Positions 22,560-62,320 of a stretch of DNA of 64,000 nt are shown here, piece by piece. Positions within the stretch are counted from its first letter, which is position 1, and the number at the start of each line of letters is the position of its first letter. The notes below the pieces were generated by a model. That model made no database searches. It saw nothing but the letters and a program-made list of their open reading frames with translations, and was not told the DNA's origin. Location of the stretch: contig CM059432.1 of assembly GCA_030390025.1 (NCBI GenBank), positions 77,812,001-77,876,000 on the forward strand, written 5' to 3'. This DNA is from Squalus acanthias. Its lineage: Eukaryota. The translations under genes and the position numbers were made by a program.

Positions 22560-23390
22560 GAGCTGGATTTTGCCAATGGGGAGCTTTTGGAGGCATGACT
22601 CCCACTTGTCGGGTTTCCAGTCCCGCCTTTTATCAACTTCTGGCCAACCCATGCTATTTTCCCTTGATTGACCTTGTTAAGAATGCCCAGCAGGCCAATT
22701 AAGGGAAAGCCGGTTACAGAGAACGTCAACGTATGACGTTTCATCTGTCAAAAACTTTTGACAGATGAAAAACTTTTGACAGATGAATTGTCATCGTTTG
22801 ACAGCTCTGTGAAGCTGTCAAACACTGATATTTTCTGTAGTTTGATGAGTTCTTGAATTCAAGACCTCATCAAACCTTTCTTTTGCAGAAATTAGATGGT
22901 TGTTGCATTGGAGAATGCAACGGCCATCTGTCATCTCGGCCGCGGAGGTGCGAGACTCTCCGCATACCCAACTCTTGAAGCCTGCAGGAAGAAACAAAGT
23001 TAAGTAAACTTTTTCTAACACTTTCCACTTACCTCACATACTCACCTCTCCACACTTGCACCCATCACTTACCTTCACAGCGCACTTTTGCACCCCTCCG
23101 ACCCCTGCAGACCCACTACTCGCCTCGGTGACCCTGACGAGGTTCGGAGCCTTCGGGAAGCCCGCACTTGTGTGGGCAAAATGGGGATAATCCTCTTATC
23201 TGCCTGTTAACTACCCGTTAACAGGCAGTTAAGTGGCACTAAACCCTTCCCGCCTCCAAGGAGATGGGACCCGGCGCGGGTCGGCTACCCGCCTCCTGGC
23301 AAGATGGCACGGAGGCGGGTTGGGCACCTGCCCCCAGATTCTGCCATTTTCCCGGCAGTCCCACCTCCCCAGGGCTGCCAAGATTGTGCC
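22560..23390. mobile_element. Non-autonomous Harbinger-type element (degenerate TIRs)
   Basis: GAGCTGGATTTTGCC versus reverse-complemented right end GGGCACAATCTTGGC; CpG-rich arms, internal hairpins; no clear TSD. Confidence 0.55.
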
Positions 23391-23598: not shown

Positions 23599-24807
23599 CT
23601 GCGAGTGAAGGAAAGATAATTAGTAGTTATGAAAAAGTAGAACGTCAAATTCTTCTCATTTCCAGAAGACCAAATCGTACAAAGGGCAGTTATTGTTTTT
23701 GTTAAAAAAATTCTACTTTCCAAGCAAAATTCTGTCTTAATTTCTTGTCACTGAATGTCTTCAAAAGCATGAACAAATTATTCTGTTGAATATACCAGTT
23801 GTGTTTGACTGGCAAAACAAAGGTGCTTTGAGATTACACAATTTAAAAAGGACAACTTCAGGGTCAACATTAATAAATAAATCCATTGAAAAAAATCACA
23901 AACAGAATTATTCAATCTGTAGTATATCAGAGACAGATTTATTTCTGCAATCTTTTAAGCAATCCTGCATAACAGTACTCTTTTTATATATTGGGAATGC
24001 GACATCATAGCATCTTGACAGTCTAAACAAACTTTGTTCATGAATTTGTAATGTAGAAAGCAATCAGTACTATTTTGTAATGATGAGTGGAATAAGTTGC
24101 TCAAATAAAGACAACATTTGTTTAAATAAAGCAAAATTATCTTTCTTGTAGAATCATTTTCATTCTTTGAATGAGGATCCTCTAAGCATCACGAAAAAGC
24201 ACCAGCACCAGGTGACATTTTCTGGCAATCACGTAAGATACCATAAGAACATAAGAATTAGGAGCAGGAGTAGGTCATACGGCCCCTCGAGCTTGCTCCG
24301 CCATTCAATAAGATCATGGCTGATCATCGACCTCAACTCCACTTTCCCACCCGATCCCCATATCCCTCGATTCCCCTAGAGTCCAAAAATCTATCTATCT
24401 CAGCCTTGAATATACTCAAAGACTCAGCATCCACAGCCCTTTGGGGGAGAGAATTCTAAAGATTCATAGCCCTGCGAGAGAAGAAATTCCTAATCATCTC
24501 AGTCTTAAATGGCCGACCCCTTATCCTGAGACTATGCCCCATAGTTCTAGACACTCCAACCTGGGGAAAAGAACCTCTCCAAATCTAACCTGTCAATCTC
24601 CCTCAGAATCTTATATGTTTCAATGAGATCAACACTCATTCTTCTAAACTCTGGAAAGTATAGGCCCAATCTACTCAATCTCTCCTCATAGGACAACCCT
24701 CTCATCCCAGGAATCAATCTAGTAAACCTTTGTTGCACTGCCTCTAAGGCAAGTATACCTTCCTCAGATAAGGAGACCAAAACTGTACACAGTACTCCAG
24801 TACATCC

Positions 24808-25595
24808 CAAAATGACAGGCCCTTATACCTCCCCCCTTCCCACTCTCCAGGGCCCCAAACACCCCTTCCAGGTGAAACAGCGATTTACTTGTACTTCTTG
24901 CAATCTAGTATACTGTATTTGCTGCTCACGATGTGGTCTCCTCTACATTGGGGAGACCAAACGCAGATTGGGTGACCGCTTTGCGGAACACCTCCGTTCA
25001 GTCCGTATGGGTGACCCCGAGCTTCCGGTGGCCTGTCATTTTAATTCACCGCTCCACTCCCACTCTGACCTCACCATCCTCGGCCTCTTGCATTGTTCCA
25101 CGGAAGCTCAGCGTAAGCTTGAGGAACAGCACCTCATCTTCCAATTAGGCACTTTACAGCCTTCCGGACTCAATATCGAGTTCAACAATTTCAGATCATA
25201 ACCTCGGCCCCTACCATATATAAAAATATATATCTATATTTTATCCACACTTTTGGTTTGTGCCTTTTCCCTTTTTTTTTCTCTCTCCCACATGGCAGCT
25301 GTCTTTCATTCTGCCAGTGCATTTCACACTTCTAGAGCCATCTTTTGTCTCTTAACCTGTCCTATTACCATCTCGTCTCGCCTTGAGTATCTCTTAATGT
25401 CTCTTCTTCTCACAGACCTCCCCTTTTGTTCTTTCATTCCCTCCCCCAGCCTCCAAACTTGCTTTTTCATCTGTTTCATTTCCTGCTTTTTTCTCAGTTC
25501 TGACGAAGGGTCTTCGACCTGAAACGTTAACTTTGTTTCTCTCTCCACGGATGTTGCCTGGCCTGCTGAGTTTTTCCAGTGCTTTCTGTTGTTAC
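24808..25595 (+). mobile_element. Penelope-like element 3' fragment (GIY-YIG endonuclease + tail)
   Basis: ORF NLVYCICCSRCGLLYIGETKRRLGDRFAEH...PSGLN; flanked by TACATCC direct repeat (24801-24807, 25596-25602). Confidence 0.92.
25496..25532 (+). ncRNA. Minimal type I hammerhead ribozyme motif
   Basis: AGTT-CTGACGA-A-GGGTC(TTC)GACCT-GAAA-CG-TT-AACT: stem I, catalytic boxes, stem II and palindromic ACGT stem III. Confidence 0.75.
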
Positions 25596-28500
25596 TACAT
25601 CCACTGGTTCCCCTTCATCAACCCTGCTAGTTACATCCTCAAAAAACTCTTAAGAAATTTGTTAAACACTATTTCTCTTTCGCAAAACCATGTTGACGCT
25701 GCCTAATCATATTATGATTTTCTAAGTGCCCTGTTACCACTTCCTTGATAATCGATTCCAGCATTTTCCTAACGACTGATGTCAGGCTAACTGGCCTGTA
25801 GTTCCGTTTTCTCTCTCCCTCTTCTTGAATAGCGTGGTTACATTTGCTACAGTCCAATCCACTGGGATCGTTCTAAGATCCTAGGGAATTTTGGAAGATC
25901 ACAACCTTTGCATCCATTACCTCTGCAGCCACTTCTTTTAAAACCTTAGGATATAGGCCATCAGGTCCAGGGGATTTGTCTGCGTTTAGTCCCATTAGTT
26001 TCTCAATTACTTTTTCTCTACTGATCTCAATTACTTTAAGTTCCTCACTCTCAGTAGCCCCTTGGTTCCCCACTATTTTTGGTATGCTTTTTGTGTCTTC
26101 TACTGTGAAGACAGGTACAAAATATTTGTTTAAAGGCTCTGCCATTTCCTTATTCCCCATTATAATTTCTCCTGTCTCAGCCTCTAAGGGACCAACGCTT
26201 ACTTTTGCTACTCTCTTCCTTTTTACATACTTGTAGAAGCTCTTACAATCTGTTTTTATAGTTCTTTCTAGTTTACGCTCATTTTATTTTTCTCCCTTTT
26301 TATCAATTTGTTCGTCATCCTTTGCTGGTTTCTAAAGCTCTCCAATTACTCATGCTTACTAATATTCTTCGCAACATTATAAGCCTCCTCTTTTAATCTA
26401 ATACTATCCTTAACTTCTTTAGTTAGCCACGGATGGATAATTTTTCCCATGGAGTTTTTATTTCTCAATGGAATGTATGTTCGTTGAGAATTTTGGAATT
26501 TTTCTTTAAATGTTTGCCACTGCTTATCTACGGTCATACCTTTTAATCTAATTTCCCAATCTACCTTAGCCAACTTGCCCCTCATACCTATGTAATTGGC
26601 TTTATTTACGTTTAAGACTCTAGTTGTGGACTTAAGTATGTCACTCTCCAAATCAATGCGAAATTCTATCATATTATGATCACTCTTCCCCAGAGGATCC
26701 TTTACTATGAGATTACTAATTAACGTTGTTTCATTACACAATGCAAGATCGGAGATAGCCAGTTCCCTGGTCGGTTCCTCGATGAATTGTTCTAGGAAAC
26801 GGTCTCGAATGCATTTCATGAACTCGTCTTCCAGACTACCTTTGCCAATTTGATTTGTCCAATCTGTATGAAGATTAAAGTCCCCCACGATCACTGCATT
26901 ACCTTTGTTACAAACTCCTATTATTTCTTGATTAATTCTCTGTCCAACGGTATAGCTGCTGTTAGGGGGCCTATAAACTACTCCCATTCGTTTTTTCTGC
27001 CCCTTGTTATTTCTTATCTCCACCCATACCAATTCTACTTCATGAAATTCCAAGCCAAGATCCTGTCTCACTACTGTCCTTATGCCATCCTTTGTTATCA
27101 GGGCTACCCACCCCCTCCTTTATTATTCTGCCGGTCTTTTCGAATTGTCAAATATCCTGGAATATTTAGTTCCCAACCTTGGTAACCTCGCAACCACATC
27201 TCTGTAATGGCTATTAGACCAAACCCATTTATCGCTATTTGTGCCACTAATTCATCTATCTTGTTACGAATGCTTTGTGCATTCAGATAACAAGCCTTTA
27301 ATTTTAACTTTTTAACCATTAATACCTGCTTTCACCTTATTCGCTGATGCACTATTACCGTTAAACTCTGTCCCTTCCTGTCACACTCTGCTTATCTTTA
27401 CCCAAATTGCTACACGGCTCCATTGCCTTGACTTTTCTCTTCAGATTTCTATATTTCCGCTCACCAGATCCCTTCCCCCCCCACTTTTTAGTTTAAAGCC
27501 CCATCTACAACCCTAGTTATTCGATTCGCCAAGACTCTGGTTCCAGCCCTGTTTAAGTGGAGCCCGTCCCAACGGAACAGCTCCCTCTTTCCCAATACTG
27601 GTGCCAGTGCCCCATGAATCGAAACCCTTTCCTCCCACACCACTCTTTGAGCCATGCATTTAACTCTCTGATCTGCTTGTCCCTATGCCAATTTGCATGT
27701 GGCTCAGGTAACAATCCAGAGATTACTACCTTTGAGGTTCTGTGTTTTAATTTGGACACTGGCTCCTCAAACTTTCTCGCAGAACCTCATTCCTTGTTCT
27801 ACGTATGTGATTGGTTTCTACGTGGAACATGACAACTGGATCCTCCCACTCCAAATTCTTCTTCAGCTGCGAGGAGGTATCTTTAACCCAGGCAACACAG
27901 CCTTCGGAACTCCCGGTTGCGGCTGCAGAGAACAGTATCTATCCGCCTGACTACTACCGCTACAACATTCCTTTTCACTCCCTCCACTTGAATGGCCTCC
28001 TGTACCATGGTGCCGTGGTCAGTTTGCTCATCCACCCTGCAGACTTTGTCCTCATGCATATAGACAGCAAGAACCTCATACCTCTTGGATAAGGACAAAG
28101 GCTGAGACTCCTCCAGCACTGCACCTAGGGACGGTCCCCTTAACTACCTGACCACTAACCAGACCTATACCACTATCTAACCTAAGGGGTGTGACTGCCT
28201 CCTGGATCAAAGTGTCCAGGTAACTTTCCCCCTCCCTGATGCCCTGCAATGTCTGCACCTCTGACTCCAACTCAATAACTCTGAGCTGAAGTTTCTCTAG
28301 AGGCAGACACTTACTGAAGACATGGTCGTCCGGGATCACAATGCTCTCCACAAACTCCCACGTGCTGCAGTTGCGGCACACCACCTGCACTGCCATCCCT
28401 ATATAACCTTTTTTATTTGATTAATGACTTAAAGTTTGTGTATTTAATTAACACAGCTAATTTTTTTAAGTTTTTTAACTAATTACTTGGTCTAGTTTAA

Positions 28501-29753
28501 GTTAAATTGATATTTACCTGTAACTTACCCTGCCTCCTCCGCGTTTACTGTGTCGTCACTTTCTCAAATTCCCTCGGTGTTTCTTTTATGCGCTCTGCCG
28601 ATTCTGCTGCCGCTGTTTAAATCTCCTCAGGCCCCTCTCGTGGTGCTATGCTCTCTGCCCACATCCCTTTAAGACACTTTGTGACACTGGAGCCCAGCTG
28701 ACTATCCTTGCTCTCATGCAATACAAAAGGGCCACACCTCCCCTGGAGCAAGTTTTATTTTATCTGAAACAGATTAATTATTTTCACTTCCTGCAAGATC
28801 TAAGGGGCAACAAACTGGAGGTGCAATGTGTAAAGGTTGTTGAAGAATACAAGTAGGTAATTTCTCATTTTTCTTTATATTGCGCCTTCTGCACACCACT
28901 GGAGTTTAACCAAATAGCAACTGTGGACAAGTAGGAGGGTAGTCCCAACAGGGAAACAGAAATTCCTGCTGGCAGGAAAGACTTGACAAACCAGGTTTTA
29001 ACTGTGGCTGCTAAGCCCAAATAGTAGTGCTTGGTGAATGTATGTGGATTACTGCAGGGAGCTGCTTTGCTTGAGTTGTCAATCAACATCTGTTTCTGAG
29101 ATGTCTTCTTGGAATGAATAGAATTTGCTGACCCCAATGATAGTCAAGAGAGATGGTAAAAATGAAGAACACATTCTACAAGTCACTGTTTAGTGACAAG
29201 CTTACCAAACACCTTGTGAACATTAAAAATAAATAACTGATGTGATTGAAGGATGGGTTTGGTGGGGCTTAACCATATACAAGGGCTAGAAATTGGGCTC
29301 CTTGGCACCTCCCGTTATTGCCTCCGGGGGCGCTAACGGGGCTTGCGACCAAGCACGGCGATATCAACGCCTCCCGCTAAATTCGGCAGGGGTTTTGCGG
29401 CGGCGGTAAGATGTTGTGCCCCGATCTCCTGCGCCCGGAGATCGTGACGTCATTGCCGTGCGCAGCGCCCCAGATGAAAAATTCCCTCTCGCCCCCTGCT
29501 TGTGCGCCTGCCGTTAACAACGACAGGTAGAGGAGGCGGCTTTCAGTTGGATGTCCCCTGGAGGAGCGCTATTTAAAGGCATCCACTTCCGGTGTAGTTT
29601 TCGTCGGCCAACAATGCTGCATTGTTAATTTCACACAGGCAAAGAGGCCTTTGACCGATTTGCACGTTTTGCATTTCAACGAGTGTTCTGGTACATAAAG
29701 ATTATTGAGTTTCATTGAGGGGTGATTTGAAAGTGCAATATTTGTATCCTTTC

Positions 29754-30850
29754 ATGGGGGCTGTACTGGCACTGGACCTCGCCCTCCAACATCAACGTCG
29801 GAGGCAACTGAAGCACAGAGAAAGAGTGCAAAATGTGGCCAGAGGTAGGAGGGTCAACAGGACTCTCAACAGGAGGCCTTACCCACCCCCAGGGTATTCC
29901 GGCAGCAGTTCTCCTACATGCATTTCACTGAGGACCAGTGTGTTTGAAGGTTCTACTTCAGCAAGGACATGGTCACAGAGCTCTGCCACCTCCTGCAGCC
30001 AGACCTCGAGCCTGAGATCAGGACCACCATGGCTCTCAGTGGCAGTCAAGGTCATCGTCGCCCTCAATTTCTACGCCAGCGGATCATTCCAGTGTGTTAC
30101 AGGCGACATCTCCGACATCTCCCAGTTTGCCGTCCATTGGTCCATCCGCCAGGTCACAGATGCTCTGCACAGAAGGAGAAGGGACTACATTTCCTTCCCC
30201 ATGGCCAGAGAGAAGCAGCGCGAGCACCATGTGGCTTTGCCAGGATAGCAGGCTTTCCCATGGTGCAGGGCGCCATTGACTACACCTACGTCGCTTTGCG
30301 GACACCTCATAACAATCTTGAGGTATTCCGCAACAGCAAAGGCTCCGACTCACTTAATGTGCAGTTGGTGTGCGACCACACACGGCGAATCCTGACAGTC
30401 AATGCCTGCTATCCTGGCAGCAGCCATGATGCCTTCATCCTGTGCCAGACCGGGTGTGCCAGACCTGTTCCAGCCACATGAAGCTTGGCTGCTGGAGACA
30501 AGGGCTATCCGCTCTCCACCTAGCTCATGACTCCCCTCCGCAACCCCAACACTCGTGCCCAGCACATCATTGAGCAGACCATCGGAGTGCTCAAGCAACG
30601 GATCCGCTGCCTTGACCGCTCGGGAGGAGCCCTCCAGTACTTGGCTGAGCGGGTGTCACTTTTCGTCGTTGTCTGCTGCATGCTGCAAAACTTGGCCATT
30701 ATGAGGGCGCAGCTATTGCCACCAGGTATAGCCGCACCACCTCAGGAGCAGGAGGAGGAGGACGAACAGCAGCGACGGAGGAGGCAGCCACTCAATCGGC
30801 GTTCTGCAAGGTCGGTCCGTGGCCGCCTCATCAGACTTCATTTCCAGTGA
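29754..30850 (+). pseudogene. Harbinger (HARBI1-like) DDE transposase pseudogene
   Basis: ALNFYASGSFQ, GFPMVQGAIDYTYV, SLNVQLVCD, YPGSSHDAFIL, HIIEQTIGVLKQRIRCL; several frameshifts and stops. Confidence 0.93.
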
Positions 30851-31009
30851 CTTCGAGTCCTCGTTCCGGTTGTTGAGCATGTTGGCATCATTCCATCACT
30901 TTGTGATTCCAAACCACATCCCAGAACTGAAATGAGACACAGCACCAAATCTGCAACATTCCAGTAATAAATTTATCAAAAACCATTAACCACATATATA
31001 CAATATTGA

Positions 31010-38465: not shown

Positions 38466-41400
38466 TCATTGTCATTTCAGACAACCAAGAAACCCAGCCT
38501 GCCCAACCAATGGTTGACCAAGAGGGAGAGGAGAGTGAAGAAGAAGAAACACCATCACTCGATTTCACTCCCAGCCACCAGCTTCTCGAGGTCGTCCTGC
38601 AAGGCCATCTGCAGTGTCCCCCACTGAAAGTCAGCAGCCTTCCATCAGCTATGCTGCAACCACTGGGGTAACACTGCGTAAGAGCACTAGGATAGGCAAA
38701 GGCACATTGCAAGACAATCATTAAGGGAATGCACAAGGGTGATTAGTTGATTTTTTTTGATGTAATATTGGATGCATATACGGATAAGTTGGATTGGAAA
38801 GTTTGCTTTGTGGTGGCTTTTACTTCAGCATTGTGGCCAAGAAGACGCTGTTATGGTCAGTAACAGAGGGAAGGTAAGGTGTAGGACAAATGTTGAAAGG
38901 GGAATTGGGGTTGTGTTCACTGGTACCGCAGGCGGGTGATTCAATCCCAGATATCCCGGCCAGAAAGGGGCTGTTTGGAGTGCTTTCTTCCTCTTCTGCT
39001 TCTTCCTCCTCCTTCTGCGAGCAGTTTGTCCCCTTTGCTGCCTCTGCTCCATCTCCATGTCATGCTGCAACTAGAGCCCCCAGAACTGGAAGCAAGTGGT
39101 GTTCTCAGAGGCCTTCCTTTAAGAGCTAAAGCCTTGCAAACGTCCAGCAGCACTCCATTCACACTTTAACAACTTTTTATAAGTATTACACCAAGCCACT
39201 ACTCCAATAAAATGTAAAGAAACCAGTACAAAAGCAAACGTCTAAACTTAACTGAAAGATGTATGTGTCCCTTTAAGAAGTGCTGGTAGCAGGTCCGTCG
39301 TATTGTGTGCTTTGGAGAGGGTGTTAATAGGAGCGGCGATGTCCAAAATACCAGAGCATGCGTCAATTCAGCATTACACACCGATTGACGTCACAATCTG
39401 GCTCATCTAAATATCTGGAGTGAGCGCAGGCAACGGCAGCAATGCCATCCTTCCCAAAATGACAGCCGCCGCGTTCCACGCCAGAAGTGGGTGGAAGAGA
39501 GGTGGCCGCCATTTTTTCTTCCAAACTGGCCCAATTTCCCGGCCATAGCAAGGAAGTTATGCTAAACCTTTATAACTCACTGGTTAGGCCTCAGCTGCAG
39601 TATTGTGTCCAAATTTGAGCACCGGACTTTAGGAAGGATGTCAAGGCCTTGGAGAGGGTGCAGTGGAAATTTAGTAGAATTATACCAGGGATGTGGGATT
39701 TCAGTTATGTGGCGAGACTAGAGAAACTGAGATTATTCTCCTCAGAGCAGAGAAGATTAAGGGGAGATTTAACAGAGGTCTTCAAAATTATGAGGGGTTT
39801 TGATAGAGTAAATAAGGAAATATTGTTTTCACTGGCAGGAGGGTCAGTAACCAGGGGACACAGGTTTAAGATAATTGGCAAAGGAACTAGAGGGAACAAG
39901 AGGAAAAAAATGATGCAGCAAGTTATGATCCAGAATGCATTGCCTGAATGGGTGGTGGAAGCACATTCAATAGTAACTTTTAAAAGGGAATCAGATAAAT
40001 ACTTGAAAAGGAAAAGTTTGCAGGGCTATGGGGAAAGAGCAGGGGAGTTGAACTAATTGAATAGCTATTTCAAAGAGCTGGCACAGGCACAATGGGCCGA
40101 AAGGCCTACTTCTTTGCTGTATCATTCTATGAAATCCCAATGGTGAGAAAAACCCAGTCCAATGAATCTGATGACACAGAATCTCATTTGCACCATGCCC
40201 TGTGCATAGAGAACTCTGCTCTTGTAACCAGCTGTTTGGACTGCTGATTGGGTGGTGAAGGGACTATCGATTGAGAGGATACTTTACAACGTTGGTTCAG
40301 CACATGCATCGCAATGACTAAATCAGTGCCGGTAGTGTGTGGCACATCAGCGGTGGTGTGGTGGACTCCATATGTTGTATTTGCCTTGGATTTAACTAGG
40401 ATACATTTATGCATATTCTCCCTAACTAACTTATGACAGTCCAGCAAGAGGAAACAAGAAAAATCCCACAAAAGGTCAAAGTCTGGGAGTTCTGCAATCC
40501 GAGCAAAAGCTCTATTGCCCATGCAGAGTCAGATGAAGTAGGCAGTTTCTGACTAGGCCTTTACCCCACTAAGCTGTTGAACACATCAAACAACTTGATC
40601 AAATGATTTTGATCCTGTCCCATGAAGGGCAGCTTCGCAGCATCTTTCTCATCCACTGTTTAGTCTTAAAGGGAAGGCATCCCTTATGTGACTCTTTCCT
40701 GTAGCCAGTCCACTCCAGAGGTGTGTCGATAATTTAACATGAAAGAGAGTGCTGGTTACACAGTATTCATTGCTTAATCACTGAAATCAACAGGTCAAGC
40801 AAGATAAATGAGCAATACATGGGCTTAACTCAAAATATAGCTCAGTCACAGATTAATAGATGGAATAGTCACTATTCTAACAATATTTACCAAAGTATAA
40901 GCACAACACATTACCCATGTTATCTGGAAAACAAATATCACTCAGTGTTCAAAAACACAGCTCACAATACAATATTATACTTGTTGTCTTCTCATACACA
41001 GAAAGGAATAGCAGAATAAATTAGGATTGAATTGATACCATAATAAAAACAAATTAAACTACTGAAATCTTAACTGTTGTGCGGAGATTAATGATATTCC
41101 TTATATTACAACAGGGACTACATTTCAAAAGTACTTAATTGGCTGTGAAGTGCTTTGGGACATCCTGAGGTTGTGAAATTTTTAACCCAATGATGCAGTG
41201 TCAAACATCCAGTATTTTCTGTGTGAATGTGATTATAAATTACAGCAGTGGCTTTATAATCAAGAATGAAGTCTCATAACTTGGAACTGTCTTTCTCCAT
41301 GAGCAAAATGACAGTTATGCATAATCAATGGTACAATATTGCTGTATTGTAGATATACTTTTAAATATGTTCAGCAATGCAATCAACACAGACTGAAGTA

Positions 41401-46684: not shown

Positions 46685-47828
46685 CTTCAAGGAAAAAGGA
46701 GACATTGAGACAAAAATTATCAAAATGGAGATATTGAGTTGTGTTATCTGATAAATATTGAAGCATAAGCAACTTGCACTTCACATTATAACAATGGCCC
46801 GAATTTTGCAATCGCAATAATGGTGAGGCTATCAGCGCTCACCGTTATTATAGAGTAAATCAGACAGCAACTTCCGGCGTTTGCACATGCGCAGTTAAAC
46901 GCAGAATCCAGAAGTTTCTGTCTGATTTGCCCTACTCCTCCACAAGCTTTGCTACACTGGTACCTCACCAAGAGATTCGGCAATAAAACTGATGAAGGGC
47001 GTGAAGTTGCTGTACTTACCCACTAAACACGTCAGAAAAAGTAGGGCTGGTGCATTCAGGTGTAAGTGAATTTTTAACGGCGTGATAAGTCTGAATAACT
47101 GAAACAACCTCTCTGGCACTGAAAATTTAATTTTACAAGTGTGGAGTCTCATTCCTTCAGAATTTAATTATTGTTAAAGATTTTTTTTAATTAAAATAAT
47201 TTGTTTTACTTTTTCTTTGTCTCTTATCTCTCTCAATTCCATCTTTCTTTCCCTCTCTTTATTTTGCTTTCTGTACAAGGTTTTACATTCAATTAAATAT
47301 TCTAATTTAAACTTCCTGGTTTAGACGCTGCAGACTAAAAAATTGGATTACACCTGAAAACAGGCGTGGGGATCGCGATGCATGATCGCTGGCGCGGGGA
47401 TTGCAATGCACTATCGCCCTGCGCCCTTTGAAAGGAATGTAGGCAGCATGTGACCTTTGTGCTGCTCGCTAATTATACTGGTTGTAGCGTTCAGCCCAGC
47501 ACTGAATGCACTACTGAGTGGCGGAACGCTCAGCAGGGGGCCCAAATTCATGCGAGGCTAGCACCAATGAAAGCTAGCCTGCACTTCTTAAAGGCAGTCT
47601 GCACCTCTTATAGGGGAGGTGCATTCTGCCTGCAGCAGCTCATGCAACTGCCTGAGGGAGTCAGATGACCAAGAACTGCCACCTGGCCAGGCACTAGTGG
47701 AGGAGCAGGAAGACAGTGATCATGAAGACACAGTGTCACTCATTTCACACTCTGCAGTTAGATGAGTCGATCATGGACAGCCCAGGCAGAAAGGGGCTAT
47801 CTGGATTGCCTCTTCCCTTCCGCTTCTT

Positions 47829-47940
47829 TCCCACATTACAACAGTGACTCCACTTCAAAAGTACTTCATTGGCTGTAAAGCGCTTTGAGACGTCCGGTGG
47901 TCGTGAAAGGTGCTATATAAATGCAAGTCTTTCTTTCTTT
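47829..47940 (+). mobile_element. SINE 3' tail inserted in Harbinger
   Basis: Same tail as 1945-2040, ending in (cttt)n. Confidence 0.75.
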
Positions 47941-47953
47941 CCTCCTCTTCCAG

Positions 47954-49219
47954 TCACTGTATGCCTATTGGCAAGGGCTGTGCCCTCATGCTGGCGAGGT
48001 TTTGGCGTATGCAGCAGACTACGACAAATCTTAAGACGCGGTCTGGTGAGTACTGCAGGGCTCCTCCAGAGCAGTCCAGGCAGCGGAACCATTGCTTCAG
48101 CACCCCAATGGTCTGCTCTATGATACAAAAGCAAAATACTGCAGATGCTGGAAATCTGAAATAAAAACAGAAAATGCTGGAAATACTCAGCAGGTCAGGC
48201 AGCATCTGTGGAGAGAGAAACAGAGTTAACGTTTCAGGTCGATGACCCTTTGTCAGAACATCTGACGAAGGGTCATCGGCCTGAAACGTTAACTCTGTTT
48301 CTCTCTCCACAGATGCTGCCTGACCTGCTGAGTATTTCCAGCATTTTCTGTGTCTGTTCTATGATGTTTTGTGTGGCAGTATGGCTTTTATTGTACGCAT
48401 ACTGGCCACGTGTAGTTGGGTTGCGGAGCAGAGTCATGAGCCAGGTGGTCAAGCAGCCAGCCTCTGGTTTGACGTGGTGGCTCAAAGACTGAAGGAACAA
48501 TGGACTGGTGCAGAATAAACTCTTCACGACTGCTGCCAGGATACCGGGCATTCACCATCATGATATGCTGAACATGGTCGCACACCAACTGCACAATCAG
48601 CGAGTGGAAACCTCTGCGGTTGCAGTACATCTTAGCATTTAGATGTGGTGCCTGCAAAGCCACGTGTGTGCAGTCAATGGTGCCCTGCACCATGGGGAAG
48701 CCCGCTATCCTGGCAAAGCCACGTGCACACTCCGCCTGCTTCTCTCTGGTCAGAGAGAAAAAAATTAAGTCCCCTCTCCTGGAAATACGAGCGTCTGTCA
48801 CCTCTCTTATGCAGCAGTGGACGATGAACTGTGAGATGTTACAGATGTCACCTGCTCCAGCCTGGAAGGATTGCCAACGCAAAGAAATTCAGGGCCACGG
48901 TCACCGTCACAGCCACTGGCAGCGCTGTCCTTTCCCTGGTGTTAGGCTGCAGGTCTGGTTGCAAGAGATGGTAGAGTTCTGTGAGCATCTCCTTCATAAA
49001 GTGCAAATGCCTCACACACTGCTCCTGGCTCAGGCTGAGGCAAGAGAATTGCTCTTGGAAGACTCTGGTGGGCAAGGCCTCCTGCTGAGAGCCCTTCTCC
49101 CCCTCCTCCTCCTTTTCTCTGTGAGCAGCTTGTCCTCTTCTTCGCTGCCTCTGCATAATCTCCCGGTTATGCTGCAGGCCAAGGGGGATGACAACTAGAG
49201 CACACATGGCTGGGAGCAT
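47954..49219 (-). pseudogene. Harbinger DDE transposase pseudogene
   Basis: GFARIAGFPMVQGTIDCTHVAL, GFHSLIVQLVCD, YPGSS, IIEQTIGVLKQWFRCLD; frameshifts and a Penelope insertion. Confidence 0.92.
48125..48351. mobile_element. Palindromic Penelope-tail mini-element with two hammerhead cores
   Basis: Arms 48167-48257 and 48261-48351 pair at 89/91 positions; 14-bp TSD gtctgYtctatgat; homologous to 25499-25590. Confidence 0.92.
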
Positions 49220-50982
49220 GTGGTCTGACCAGAACCCTTGATTTCAGAAGCAAGGCCTTCTACACTTGCAGCACCACTCCACGTCACCCTCACCAACTTT
49301 GAATAACTCTAGAAAGCTCCAAACAGTTCCACAAACTTACACAGAGCCAGTGGAAATCAATCAATCAATCAATCAGCAACTAACCTTAGAGTTGTTGCTG
49401 ATCCCTTTAAATATCACTGGTAGGGGGGTCCTTGCTGATGCTGAACGCATGTTTAGCTGTGCGAGGTTAACACAGGGCATTAGCTCCAGCGTTGAAGAAG
49501 AAATGGCAGCGCTGGCATCGAATCAGCGTCGTACGCTGATTGCCGTCACAATCTGTGCACTCTGCATACTTCTGGCGCACGCTCACCCTACCACCTTCAC
49601 CAAGATGCCATCCAGTGGGACACTCACCACAAGTGTGCGTGCGCTATGTGGATGCCGTTTTCGGCACAAAATGGCACCCTTAGTGCTGAAAAATCGGGCG
49701 TTACGGAACCAAATTTTTCACCCTGCGTGTCTCAGTGAGGATTCTTCAATCTGATTGGTTAAGGAGACAAGCTGTTGCTCGTCCTGCTCACATCCCCTTG
49801 TAGAGGGCGCCGTGCTGAAAAGGATCTCTAATTACCGTAAGTTACCGCTCAAAAGCCCACAAAAAGTCTGTGGGCAGCTGTAAACATAATAAACGACGAG
49901 CGCCGTTCCTTCGCCGCTGACCGCAAAATCCAGGCCATTATTTCTGAAGCTACAAAATATCTTTACCTCCATCTAATTTTTCAGAGTTAACTATGGTTTT
50001 GTTTTTACTTTAGTTTTTGGTTGTATTGCATTATTTTTGATCCCTGTAAGGCCAAAATTTTCCTAATTTCATGTAATCCATCCAGGAAACATGCTATATC
50101 AATCTACTTTATAGCAAGAGTTATGCTACTAAATATCAAGCAGTAATTTCACACAAAAGTTGAAAAATCTAAACGTTCACATGAACGCATTTACTCTGTA
50201 GGCCCAGGTGGTTCATCTTAGCTTTAAGGGCTTTACACTTATTGATCAAATCCATTACTGTAGTTCTAAACTATTAGCGGTAAGATTAATTATGGGGAAA
50301 CACTCTTATCTGCAGAAGCAGAAACTTAAGCTATTTCTACTCCTAAAGTTTGCGCTGTAATAAGGTCAAAAATAAGGCAGGTCCTGTCTGCTGCAATAAT
50401 TGCATAAGAACGTAAAGCACAGAATGAGTTAGGCACATTTGGTCTATCAAGTACATTCTTTCTCCACATTTGTATGATCTGCTCTACCCTGGACTCTGCT
50501 GAACCCATTTAATCTGCAAAGTTGATCGCTGTGTGTCTGTCTGCCCCTAAAAGGTCAAGTAAATCAAATCTTTCAACAATACAAAATTCCTTCCACTCAC
50601 CCCCACTTCACCTGAATAAAAGAAGATGGGCCACGTCATGTTTGTGCTGAAGATTTTCCTGTGAAGACTCAGAATTTTAACTGAAATATTCAGTACATGT
50701 ATTTATTTTTTTCTTCTTGAAGTTAGGTTTTCAAGACAGACATAAATTGATAGAAACCCAAAACCGGGGTAATATCCCCAACATGAGGGATCTAATGACA
50801 ATGAATTAGTGAAGAAAACTGAATGTAACTAAAAAGGGTTAACATATTATGTGTGCAATTGACAGTAGTACTCTCACAAAACTGATGTGCCCTGCCATGA
50901 CCAGAGGAACTGCAGGCATGCCTTGATGGCTATTTTACTCAGTAAAAAAAACCTGTCAAACGAATCAGTGCCAGTATACATT

Positions 50983-51714
50983 GGGCCAAAAATTCGGCCC
51001 TTCCCGGGTGAGTACACAGTGCATACTCACCCGTAAGACGTCCCGAAGTGCCGGTTTCCTGCATGCACTGCGCATGCGCGGGAAACCGGAACTTCCGGTC
51101 TGGTGAAGGGGGCGGTTCCTAGGTGAACTGCGTGCGCGGTAGAGGCTGCGCGCACGCAGCAAACTTAGATTTTTTTTCAGGTTTCTACGGGAGGGTAAGT
51201 AGTGAAGAACCTATGCTTATAAAGGTAAGTGGTTAATTGAGTATAATTTAAAAAAAATTTCAACAGGTTTATCTTTCTTAGATACTTTAAAGAAAGGTAA
51301 GTTTATTTTTATCACTTTTAAAAAGTATTTTAATTTTTTCAAAAATTTAAATTTTTGTTTAAAGTGGTTAATTTATTTAACTATAGTTATTTTATAAATG
51401 TGATGTTTTTTTTAAATTTATTTTAAGTTTAGTTGTTCTTTTGGGGCCGATTTCAATTCACAGATTTGACAGGTCTCCTGTCAAATCTATGAATGAAAGA
51501 CGGTCTGCTGCCATTGGCTCTCCATGGCCCACGTGATCCCAGGGGACGCATCGCACTAACTGCGCCCCTGGGACACGCACGCACTGCGCGCCGGCAGTTG
51601 GAGCAGGCCCAGGAGCTGAAGTTCCCGTGGGCCCAAAACAACGGCAGGCGCGGTAGGTAAGTGCGCGCGCGATCCTTACCCCCGCGGCAAGCCGGAGAGG
51701 CGAATTTCAGGGCC
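50983..51714. mobile_element. Harbinger-type MITE (732 bp), family A copy 2 (opposite orientation to copy 1)
   Basis: TIR GGGCCAAAAATTCG / rc GGCCCTGAAATTCG; perfect ATT TSD; colinear with the reverse complement of 36407-37149. Confidence 0.92.
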
Positions 51715-52497
51715 ATTACTACGCACTATTCCATACTGACAGAACAATACCACAGGCCTATATTTTCAAGTTCACTAAAGAAAATAAACGAGTGTATATA
51801 ATTGCGTACATGACGAGAAATCCTATCACTGTTTGGAGCCAATACTGGGGAGGATAATTTCTACATGCATAGGATTTCCCTTTGGATTTCCTCCCAGCGG
51901 AGCAATTACTCTAAGAACAATGGACTTAGTAGCACCATTATTTCAATTAGCTTTTGCTCTGCCCGTCTCCTCTATCACGTGACATTTAAATGAGAATGTT
52001 CCCTCCTGATTCCAGACTTCAGTCCAGGTTCCCCCTGAAGATTTAAAATCAGACAGTGCAGCATGGTAGATACAAGAGAGGAGTTTTGATGTTCAATTGT
52101 GGCAACCAGGACTGAAGTCAGGAGGGAAAGTTACTATTTAAACATCACAGCGCTGAAGGAGTGGTGTAACAGCTAGGATGGAACATGCTACTTGAAATGA
52201 GAGAGAGAAAACATGTATTTGTGGACATCGCCCAACAAGAAGAGTAATGGTATGGTGAAAAGAAGCTTTGTTATGTTAATCCGTGTCTTATACAAGAGTC
52301 GGGGTGTTTTTTTTTGGGGGGGGGGGGGGGCGGGGGGGAGGCATCTTATTTGTCCCCATTTCCCAGAGTGAGCCTTAATGTTTAATGTGAATGTATAATT
52401 TATGTTTTACCATCTTTCTAAATGTATTTAGTTATTTTGGAGCTAGTGGAAACTACCTTTAAGGTTCACTCTGGAAAGAGGGGACAAATGTAATGTA

Positions 52498-52737
52498 CAG
52501 TAAACTCTTTCGTATCCGGCACCGACGGGACCGGGATGGTGCCGGTTGATTAAAACAGAGAGGTAGGCAATTCTTAACACAAAAAAAATAAAAACCAGTG
52601 ACTAACTCGGCCACCGCGGGAAACTCGGACTCGGAAAAACGAAAAATGGATGGATTCGGCAAGATTACCGGTTATCTATTTTGCCGGTTATTAAAGAATT
52701 CCGGTTGATTAGGTGCTGTTTAAACGAGAGTTTACTG
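52498..52737. mobile_element. Tc1/mariner (pogo/Tigger-like) MITE, 240 bp
   Basis: TA|CAGTAAACTCT...AGAGTTTACTG|TA. Confidence 0.9.
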
Positions 52738-52934
52738 TATTATAGTATAATGATGTGCCTGATTTTTAAGAGGGGAAAAACATATTTCAGAAAATGTGCT
52801 AAACATCAATGCTTTCCCCATTGCTAATAAATTATATTTTTAATGGTTGAATTGCACAAACCGGTGGGGGGGGGGGGGGGGGATTTAAATAAAATATATC
52901 AATTCTTTGGAGCTTCTCTCATTTTTTTTTTTAC

Positions 52935-54598: not shown

Positions 54599-55269
54599 CT
54601 GGAAGAGAAAAAAAATACATTAAGTAAGTGAATTGTAATTACTCAATGCTAATTTCATTGTTGCACATTTAAGCTTTTAACAACAACAGTACTATGTCCA
54701 AGCATTTTGAGCTTTCCAGGGCATACTATAATTGATATTATTTATGTTCATATGGTCATAATACTACACTAAATGTTTTGAATATTACAAATTTAAATAT
54801 GCTTTAGCAAATGAAAAGTGAAGGCGTTAATGTGTAAGAAAATAAAGCCAAAGGTTTGCTGAAAGCTTGCACGGAAACAACAGTGCAAGTACAGCGTAAT
54901 GCCAATTTTCGGCGTAAAAGATCGAGGAAGTTCAGGTGCAAGTAACTTGCGCCCGTTTTTACACTGCACCTGAATTTTCTCAATCTTTAACGCTGAATCG
55001 AAGAAACAGCTTGCTTCCCCCCACCTACAATGCAATAATGCAGCTCATGCGAATGTCCTGAATTTACGCCAGTGCAACAGGACCCAGTCATATTTCTGGT
55101 GTTTTATGCAAATTGTTTAAGCATGTGTTTTGATTTCTCCTCACTGAAACCTACGATAAGTTATATTTCTTTGAATGCAACTTTATGGCATCAGAATGAT
55201 TTGCATTAAAAATGAAAAACTACCACGATTGTATTGCATACATCTTTAATAGGTACATGAGCAATTCCG

Positions 55270-61049: not shown

Positions 61050-62320
61050 GAGCCACATATCCAAGTTTGCCAATAGGTGGCATTGTAAGCAGTGTAAATG
61101 GAAGCATAAAATTACAGAGAAAGTAATAGATTAAGTGACTGGGCAAAACTGTGGCAAATGGGTTTCAATGTCCAAAGTGTGAGGTCATCCACTCTGGACC
61201 TAAAAAGGATAGATTAGAGTACTTTCTAAATGGTGAAAAGCTAGAAACAGTGGAGGTCCAAAGAGACTTAGGGGTCCATATACATAGATAATTAAAATGT
61301 CATGGACAGTTGCAGAAAATAATCAAACAGTCTAATGGAATGCTGGCCTTTATATCTAGAGGACTAGAATACAAGCGAGTAGAAGTTTTGTTACAGCTAT
61401 ACAAAGTCCTGGTTAGGCCACACCTGGAGTACTGTGTTTAGTTCTGGGCACCACACCGTAGGAAGCATGTATTGGTATGGAGGGAGTGCAGTGTAGATTT
61501 ACTAGAATGATACCTGGACTCCAAGAGTTAAATTGCAAGGAGAGATTACACAAATTAGAATTGTATTCCCTAGAATTTAGAAGGTTAAGGGGTGATTTGA
61601 TCGAAGTTTTCAAGATATTAAGGGGAACTGATAGGATAGATAGAGAGAAGCTATTTCCGCTCGTTGGGGAGACTAGGGAGACATACCCTAAAAATTAGAG
61701 CCAGATCTTTCAGGAGTGAAGTTAGGAACTCCTTTTACATGCAAACGGTGGTAGAAGTAACAAACTCTCCTGCAAACGGCAGTTGATACTACAGGAAACT
61801 CTTTCGTATCCGGCACCGACGGAACCGGGATGGTGCCGGTTGATTGAAAATTCCGGATGACGGAGAGGGTTATCTACCGAGGCTATTTTTAACAAACAAA
61901 AATAAAAAAATCAAGAAATGTGCAGTATAATTGGGTACTCCCCTACAGAATGTTGTGTTAAATGGATGGTGGAAGATGCTTGATTAAGTACAGTAATGCC
62001 AGTTGAGGGTAATCCATAACTCTTTAATTACTTAACAGTAAAACAAAACTTATAAACGACTGTATACTGTAGTTTTCAGAGTATGAATTCTGCCGGTTAT
62101 TAGAGAATTCCGGATATTTAGGTGCCGTTTAAACGAGAGTTTCCTGTAGATCAATTGTTAATTTTAAATCAGAGATTGATAGATTTTTGTTAACCAAAGG
62201 TATTAAGGGATATGGGGCAAAGGCAGGTATATGGAGTTCGGTCACAGATCAGCCATGATCTCATTGAATGGCGAAACAGGCCCAAGGGGCTAAATGGCCT
62301 ACTCCAGTTCTTATGTTCCC
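61050..62320 (+). mobile_element. CR1 3' fragment interrupted by a mariner MITE
   Basis: RFTRMIPGL..LEFRRLRGDLIEVFKI; tail ttcttatgttc. Confidence 0.88.
61792..62146. mobile_element. Tc1/mariner (pogo/Tigger-like) MITE, 355 bp
   Basis: TA|CAGGAAACTCT...AGAGTTTCCTG|TA; same family as 52498-52737. Confidence 0.9.

Follow-up and report, generated by a model that had tools for sequence, protein, structure and literature searches.

EN+ Penelope-like elements (PLEs) are described as inserting with an inverted pLTR, a tail on one of the inverted repeats and target-site duplications (TSDs) of 8-10 bp, the head-to-head arrangement being the most frequent (PMC3846280). A second account of Penelope-like insertions includes an inverted 5'-truncated copy and a tail of 30-40 bp at one end, and calls the role of the hammerhead ribozyme in these elements unclear (PMC8557442). 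Minimal hammerheads (min-HHRs) are reported for metazoan PLEs, and in Schistosoma mansoni dual min-HHR motifs lie on opposite strands, 100-700 bp apart (PMC4209133). In vitro, a purified Poseidon protein was found to cleave each of the two target strands and to extend both, with reverse transcription beginning at a pair of internal sites, one at either end of the tail (PMC11167929). The window analysed here, a 64-kb stretch of DNA, contains a 227-bp insert (48125-48351) between two direct repeats (Table 1). Inverted-repeat analysis confirmed the insert coordinates, the 91-bp stem, the two mismatches and the ACA loop that a preliminary description of this DNA had given: 48167-48257 pairs with 48261-48351, the mismatches are at 48251/48267 and 48239/48279, and the loop has 3 nt. 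The same description had taken the insert for two head-to-head Penelope tails. This geometry and the Penelope-like origin were upheld, the arms matching the end of a GIY-YIG fragment elsewhere in the window at 89%, with the refinement that a 42-bp tail belongs to one arm only.

The insert shares with the EN+ PLE complex insertions described in PMC3846280 and PMC8557442 a head-to-head inverted copy, a tail on one arm, a short TSD and a palindromic inverted junction. In contrast to them, it retains just the terminal 91 and 135 bp and has neither an ORF nor a full pLTR, its TSD is 14 bp long, and its tail measures 42 rather than 30-40 bp. A GIY-YIG parent, a TSD, a one-sided tail and an inverted 5'-truncated head-to-head partner were all found, as expected for an EN+ Penelope-like insertion. 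Terminal inverted repeats adjoining both TSDs, as in a DNA-transposon MITE, were not found at the insert: pairing stops at 48167, and the 42 bp of the left arm outside the stem are unpaired, which makes the insert asymmetric. Read along the cDNA strand, both outer ends open with ACA; PAc, the Poseidon element of Anolis carolinensis, starts in an AC-rich stem-loop (PMC11167929). Base 48260 of the loop was either untemplated or mutated later. The insert is a minimal example of a known Penelope-like insertion pattern; its layout has been described before, and by itself the locus is ordinary. We consider it probable that an autonomous EN+ Penelope-like retrotransposon, likely of the Neptune clade, left it in one insertion that is now probably dead, and that the mirror image was built during insertion.

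Table 1. Features of the insert, its target and the reference copy of the parent family (window coordinates)
Feature	Position	Strand	Details
Reference copy of parent family	24808..25593	+	Penelope-like fragment, truncated at the 5' side; has the end of GIY-YIG, the 3' region and an entire minimal hammerhead (25496-25532) but no tail
Transposase pseudogene, C-terminal part	47954..48124	-	PF13359 E 1.8e-4, below curated cut-off; 78% identity to paralog 30566-30730
Left target-site duplication	48111..48124	.	14 bp, 13/14 identical to 48352-48365
Long arm, 135 bp	48125..48259	-	Hammerhead-bearing Penelope-like end, starts -3 relative to C of CUGA; 88.8% identity over 98 bp to 25497-25594
Tail, left arm only	48125..48166	-	42 bp; absent from right arm and 25.5-kb copy; end is the family's far 3' end
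Minimal hammerhead core	48228..48256	-	CpG site with G8 changed to A; cut predicted at 48228/48227
Loop	48258..48260	.	48258-48259 are the left arm's parent sequence; 48260 matches neither arm
Short arm, 91 bp	48261..48351	+	Starts -1, ends at near 3' end without tail; 89.0% identity over 91 bp to 25499-25589
Minimal hammerhead core	48262..48290	+	CUGANGA and GAAA boxes intact, helix I 5' strand missing; cut predicted at 48290/48291
Right target-site duplication	48352..48365	.	Partner of 48111-48124
Transposase pseudogene, N-terminal part	48352..48900	-	PF13359 E 1.6e-10; 73-83% identity to paralog 30056-30562

The target site shows how the insert arrived. The sequence on either side is part of a single minus-strand pseudogene of a Harbinger-type transposase (PF13359, DDE_Tnp_4), in whose frame ...NIIEQT precedes the insert and IIEQTIGVLKQ follows it. 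A Harbinger paralog at 29948-30730 holds the 14-mer of the TSD once, at 30566-30579. Since the insert splits a pseudogene whose paralog carries the target once, the 14-bp TSD put forward in the preliminary description is genuine; for any one given pair of sites, 13 of 14 positions would agree by chance with a probability of about 1.6e-7. The single target copy in the paralog also means that the 227 bp came in one event that duplicated the target. The window as a whole holds two decayed Harbinger-type transposase copies (DDE_Tnp_4), at 29700-30900 (+) and 47954-49240 (-), which are 73-83% identical where compared. The left end of the Harbinger copy at the insert is interrupted by 47790-47945, which we take to be a SINE-like 3' end, and three further copies of this repeat were seen at 91-204, 1945-2039 and 41105-41178.

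The sole other match to the arms in the window is 25497-25594 (89% identical), within the reference copy of the parent family, and in the alignment the right arm terminates at the same point as this 25.5-kb copy. The reference copy encodes a GIY-YIG domain whose PF01541 score equals the cut-off. A candidate TSD of 9 bp flanks this copy (24799-24807 and 25594-25602, 8/9 matching), which presumably sits within a CR1-like repeat. Its GIY-YIG region has 33 homologs, the best at 67% identity; 11 are named to species, and 10 of these 11 are from sharks, skates or rays, which makes a cartilaginous fish the most likely host. The RT domain (PF00078) is present in three of the 33 and absent from the window copy. 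A YIGET-type motif could be read in 22 of the 33 homologs and not in the other 11; 15 of these 22 have a C-x(2-5)-C-x-x-C linker, and the window fragment begins just downstream of this motif. Such a linker zinc finger between RT and EN is described as a Neptune-type mark (PMC8557442). These homologous sequences make it likely that the parent family belongs to the Neptune clade, in contrast to PAc, which is of the Poseidon clade (PMC11167929). The 44-aa open frame of the arm had no match among the 33 homologs, which are 229-595 aa long and mostly below full ORF length. Patterns made from the arm DNA found 0 loci in viral, metagenome and genome contig collections, as expected for a vertebrate repeat.

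A hammerhead core lies on each side of the hinge, as had been described. The motif scan identified CTGACGA...GAAACGTT on the plus strand and CTGACAA...GAAACGTT on the minus strand, and the arms start at -3 (left) and -1 (right) from the C of CUGA, which places the hinge at the hammerhead 5' end. No Rfam family reached its gathering score anywhere in the window, so the hammerhead label rests on the motif match to the published minimal form. Seventeen weak Rfam matches were listed for 48100-48400, all below gathering score and none of them to a hammerhead family; they were rejected, the top ones being microRNA models, which will match long hairpins of any kind. Across the window the motif scan gave five matches, namely the three cores of this family and two with only 3-bp stems. 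With metazoan PLE min-HHRs the insert has in common CUGANGA, one extra base, helix II, GAAA, a palindromic 15.2/16.2 without helix III and a short helix I (PMC4209133). It differs from them in that just 5 nt separate its two cores, both of which are damaged, and in that position 11.1 is U, a conserved C in the min-HHR. The CUGANGA and GAAA-NUH boxes and helix II are present in the plus arm and in the 25.5-kb copy, and the minus arm lacks G8. Helix I has 4 bp in the 25.5-kb copy (AGTT pairing with AACT), 3 bp in the minus arm and 1 bp in the plus arm, the criterion for the minimal form being 4-5 bp. The G8 site is a G within a CpG in both the right arm and the 25.5-kb copy; the other stem mismatch is a substitution private to the right arm, each arm thus carrying one private substitution relative to that copy. 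By this comparison both mismatches look like decay after insertion, and the loss of G8 like CpG decay.

The motif scan and the alignment to the 25.5-kb copy agree with the preliminary description on the defect of each core, the missing 5' strand of stem I on the plus strand and the lost G8 on the minus strand. These defects support its suggestion that neither core would be active as a cis monomer. The RNA fold predicted for the insert has -190.4 kcal/mol (z -25.5; none of 200 shuffles was equally stable), and forcing the plus core to fold would cost 53.6 kcal/mol relative to the long hairpin. Because the cores are on opposite strands, any transcript would contain a single sense core and could not form a cis dimer. 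The cut sites, placed by published hammerhead core numbering, are predicted to fall within the arms at a distance of 31 nt from the hinge. With this offset, cleavage would neither delimit the insert nor have produced the hinge, and both arms would have been copied from uncleaved RNA. Non-LTR retrozymes resemble the insert in being short, non-coding, PLE-derived, hammerhead-bearing and found in Chondrichthyes (bioRxiv 10.64898/2026.07.22.740005). As defined there, a retrozyme is a head-to-tail tandem with at least two complete hammerheads in the same orientation, and the insert, an inverted pair with one incomplete core per strand, was rejected as a member of this class.

To compare the insert with other copies, reads and contigs of public runs were aligned to 48040-48292. 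The end and junction data come from run X1, contigs of organism A, a run that contains 0.51 of the sampled words and may be from a species other than that of the window; run X22 gave 13 reads of a diverged relative, and X23 and X24 gave 0 reads. About 55% of run X1 was read, and 48,859 contigs matched, indicating that shark genomes are rich in short copies of the parent family. Among the 7 of 320 loose-end rows listed for X1, ends pile up at 48123, 48125 and 48127 (396, 414 and 362 contigs) and at 48159 (330 contigs). The family in X1 has two 3' end classes, a tail end at about 48125 and a near, short end at about 48159, and these are the classes used by the two arms of the insert. PAc likewise has two 3' end classes a tail-length apart (PMC11167929). 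In a separate X1 joint, 48125/48160, the two 3' end classes meet on opposite strands in 4 contigs, possibly tail-to-tail.

These ends bear on two other possible origins of the palindrome: formation after insertion, when a longer copy underwent fold-back repair or a template switch during replication, and an artefact of assembly. Hairpins can be misassembled or rearranged, and no read spanning the locus was seen in the aligned runs. Such an origin is nevertheless very unlikely, given that the outer ends sit on the two natural end classes of the family and adjoin the TSD, and that one private substitution per arm relative to the 25.5-kb copy is unlike a copy-paste artefact.

Head-to-head junctions in X1 were read from 22 distinct joints, which comprise the 15 of 49 rows listed in one table and the 12 of 36 listed in another. 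Six were left out: in five, the two sides lie on the same strand of a single arm, as skips or back-jumps, and the sixth joins two 3' ends. The remaining 16 readable junctions are all different. In 11 of them the longer arm starts between -6 and +2 of the CUGA core, and the shorter arm is scattered from +31 to +116; two junctions of uncertain orientation (48161/48214 and 48161/48216) were counted as misses. Compared with a uniform null over the visible range, 11 of 16 gives P = 4e-6 to 5e-5, and in the worst case, with all 34 unlisted rows of the first table elsewhere, the count would be 11 of 50 (P 0.29). Short contigs hide junctions further upstream, and two opposite-strand rows may contain unlisted letters between their arms. 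Pairs with both arms near the hinge, like this insert, are invisible in these data, as they would be aligned straight through it or appear as small indels under the 2% listing threshold. The pattern, one arm pinned at the hammerhead 5' edge while its partner scatters, is suggestive only and serves as a lead. In addition, 304 X1 contigs read through 48259 and on into the sequence upstream, which shows that copying need not end at the hinge. The preliminary description had raised the idea that reverse transcription turns around at the ribozyme and had called for inversion breakpoints to be mapped relative to CTGANGA. In organism A this idea stands in part: one arm starts near the core in 11 of 16 junctions, a selected subset, but the partner arms are scattered, no two junctions agree, and the 304 contigs run on upstream.

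Three of the junctions have raised depth, at 305.1 (48224/48259), 141.6 and 81.4, most others being at about 30, and several loci may share one junction in these cases. Depth over the hinge position itself was left out of account, as short contigs fit both arms equally and summed depths do not give a copy number. The deepest junction has a 3-nt helix I microhomology, and its three ambiguous letters from 48224 reach 48227, the predicted cut. Its depth could reflect repeated formation, unit amplification or inclusion in some larger duplicated stretch. If its short arm is read from the cut itself, and taken with a second junction at 48226, 1 nt away, it would fit a turn set by hammerhead cleavage, in which reverse transcription runs off self-cleaved RNA and reverses there. 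We hold this to be highly improbable: only these two of the 16 junctions are at the cut, the hinge of the insert lies well upstream of it, and in vitro insertion of the Poseidon element proceeds without hammerhead cleavage, ribozyme-dead mutants inserting normally and no RNA-seq read ending at the cut (PMC11167929).

The junction depths also bear on the proposal, made in the preliminary description, of a ribozyme-delimited retro-MITE. Here a non-autonomous master hairpin would be transcribed and reinserted as a unit by a Penelope-like protein. The roughly tenfold depth of 48224/48259 and the raised depth of the other two junctions would be in keeping with this, as would the reported ability of pLTRs to mobilise intervening DNA in trans (PMC3846280) and the existence of non-autonomous retrozymes derived from PLEs (bioRxiv 10.64898/2026.07.22.740005). 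We consider it improbable, however, because the window holds a single palindrome of this kind, all 16 readable junctions in organism A differ, and the RNA to be copied would be a hairpin of -190 kcal/mol. The microhomology of the deepest junction could let it form repeatedly. By extension to the parent family, the insert also lacks the sequence beyond the start sites of reverse transcription that the tested element needs. The ribozyme delimitation itself is not borne out, with one sense core per transcript and predicted cuts away from the hinge.

Insertion by an autonomous EN+ element would instead proceed as follows. The GIY-YIG nuclease would cut the target strands 14 bp apart, and cDNA would start at two internal sites, the far site giving the tailed left arm and the near site the tail-less right arm. 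One target overhang would prime the far site and the other the near site; both cDNAs would stop at the hammerhead 5' edge and then join head to head. The palindrome would thereby be made at insertion and not be carried by a palindromic RNA. Two internal start sites would account for the natural end of the arm that lacks the tail. Dual priming, from each of the target strands, is slightly favoured over fold-back self-priming of one cDNA, for which the CAG-TT-CTG palindrome of the parent could offer a site; self-priming at palindromic junctions has been proposed for inverted copies (PMC3846280). This scheme supposes that the parent family behaves like the Anolis element, the in vitro comparison being with a lizard Poseidon element and not with the parent family. 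For the Poseidon element, the first 172 nt of the ORF are needed and reverse transcription starts at about 111-118, that is, RNA is required for about 55-60 nt beyond the start sites (PMC11167929). By analogy with this element of another clade, the insert, which ends at the equivalent of the start sites with no sequence beyond them, is probably not remobilisable. The 14-bp TSD exceeds the 8-10 bp of the rotifer examples, and we count this, together with the raised depth of three junctions in organism A, against insertion by such an element.

Beyond the known layout, only the hint that stubs tend to stop at the ribozyme start remains of interest. In the 25.5-kb copy (25470-25500) and in the X1 upstream consensus at 48259, a pyrimidine run and CAG are followed by TTCTGA. 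In sequence, this stretch directly before the hammerhead resembles a splice acceptor, and among the eight junctions whose in-between letters could be read, three begin with the base that immediately follows the acceptor-like signal. In D. virilis Penelope, an intron is reported to end at the helix I 5' end (PMC4209133). A second acceptor-like stretch, followed by ATG, was seen inside the arm at about 48291-48315. We raise tentatively, and with some doubt, the possibility that in this chondrichthyan family the hammerhead 5' edge is a programmed stop and joining point for cDNA, independent of cleavage, with one arm pinned and its partner anywhere. The stop would coincide with the acceptor-like signal and the tiny palindrome CAG-TT-CTG, and the complementarity of helices I and II would supply extra joining sites. 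If so, the ribozyme fold or an intron boundary, not the chemistry, would shape how these elements insert. A literature search covering titles and abstract openings, with few subscription papers and no Repbase, returned nothing on inversion junctions clustering at the hammerhead 5' edge or on such palindromes in sharks. Which arm starts occur across shark copies bears on two questions, what the hammerhead does in PLEs and how their inverted ends originate.

Other inverted repeats in the window had no hammerhead core in the motif scan. They include a short palindrome at 22725-22802 with 35-bp arms, 80% complementary, and an internal 18-bp direct duplication. Short imperfect palindromes with arms of 27-34 bp at 46851-46934, 51447-51503 and 54908-54997 are probably pieces of other repeats. 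Finally, 61789-62149 and 52496-52739 are related elements that look like a DNA-transposon MITE family, with terminal inverted repeat arms of 43 bp that are 72% complementary at 61.8 kb and ends that are 95% and 89% identical between the copies.
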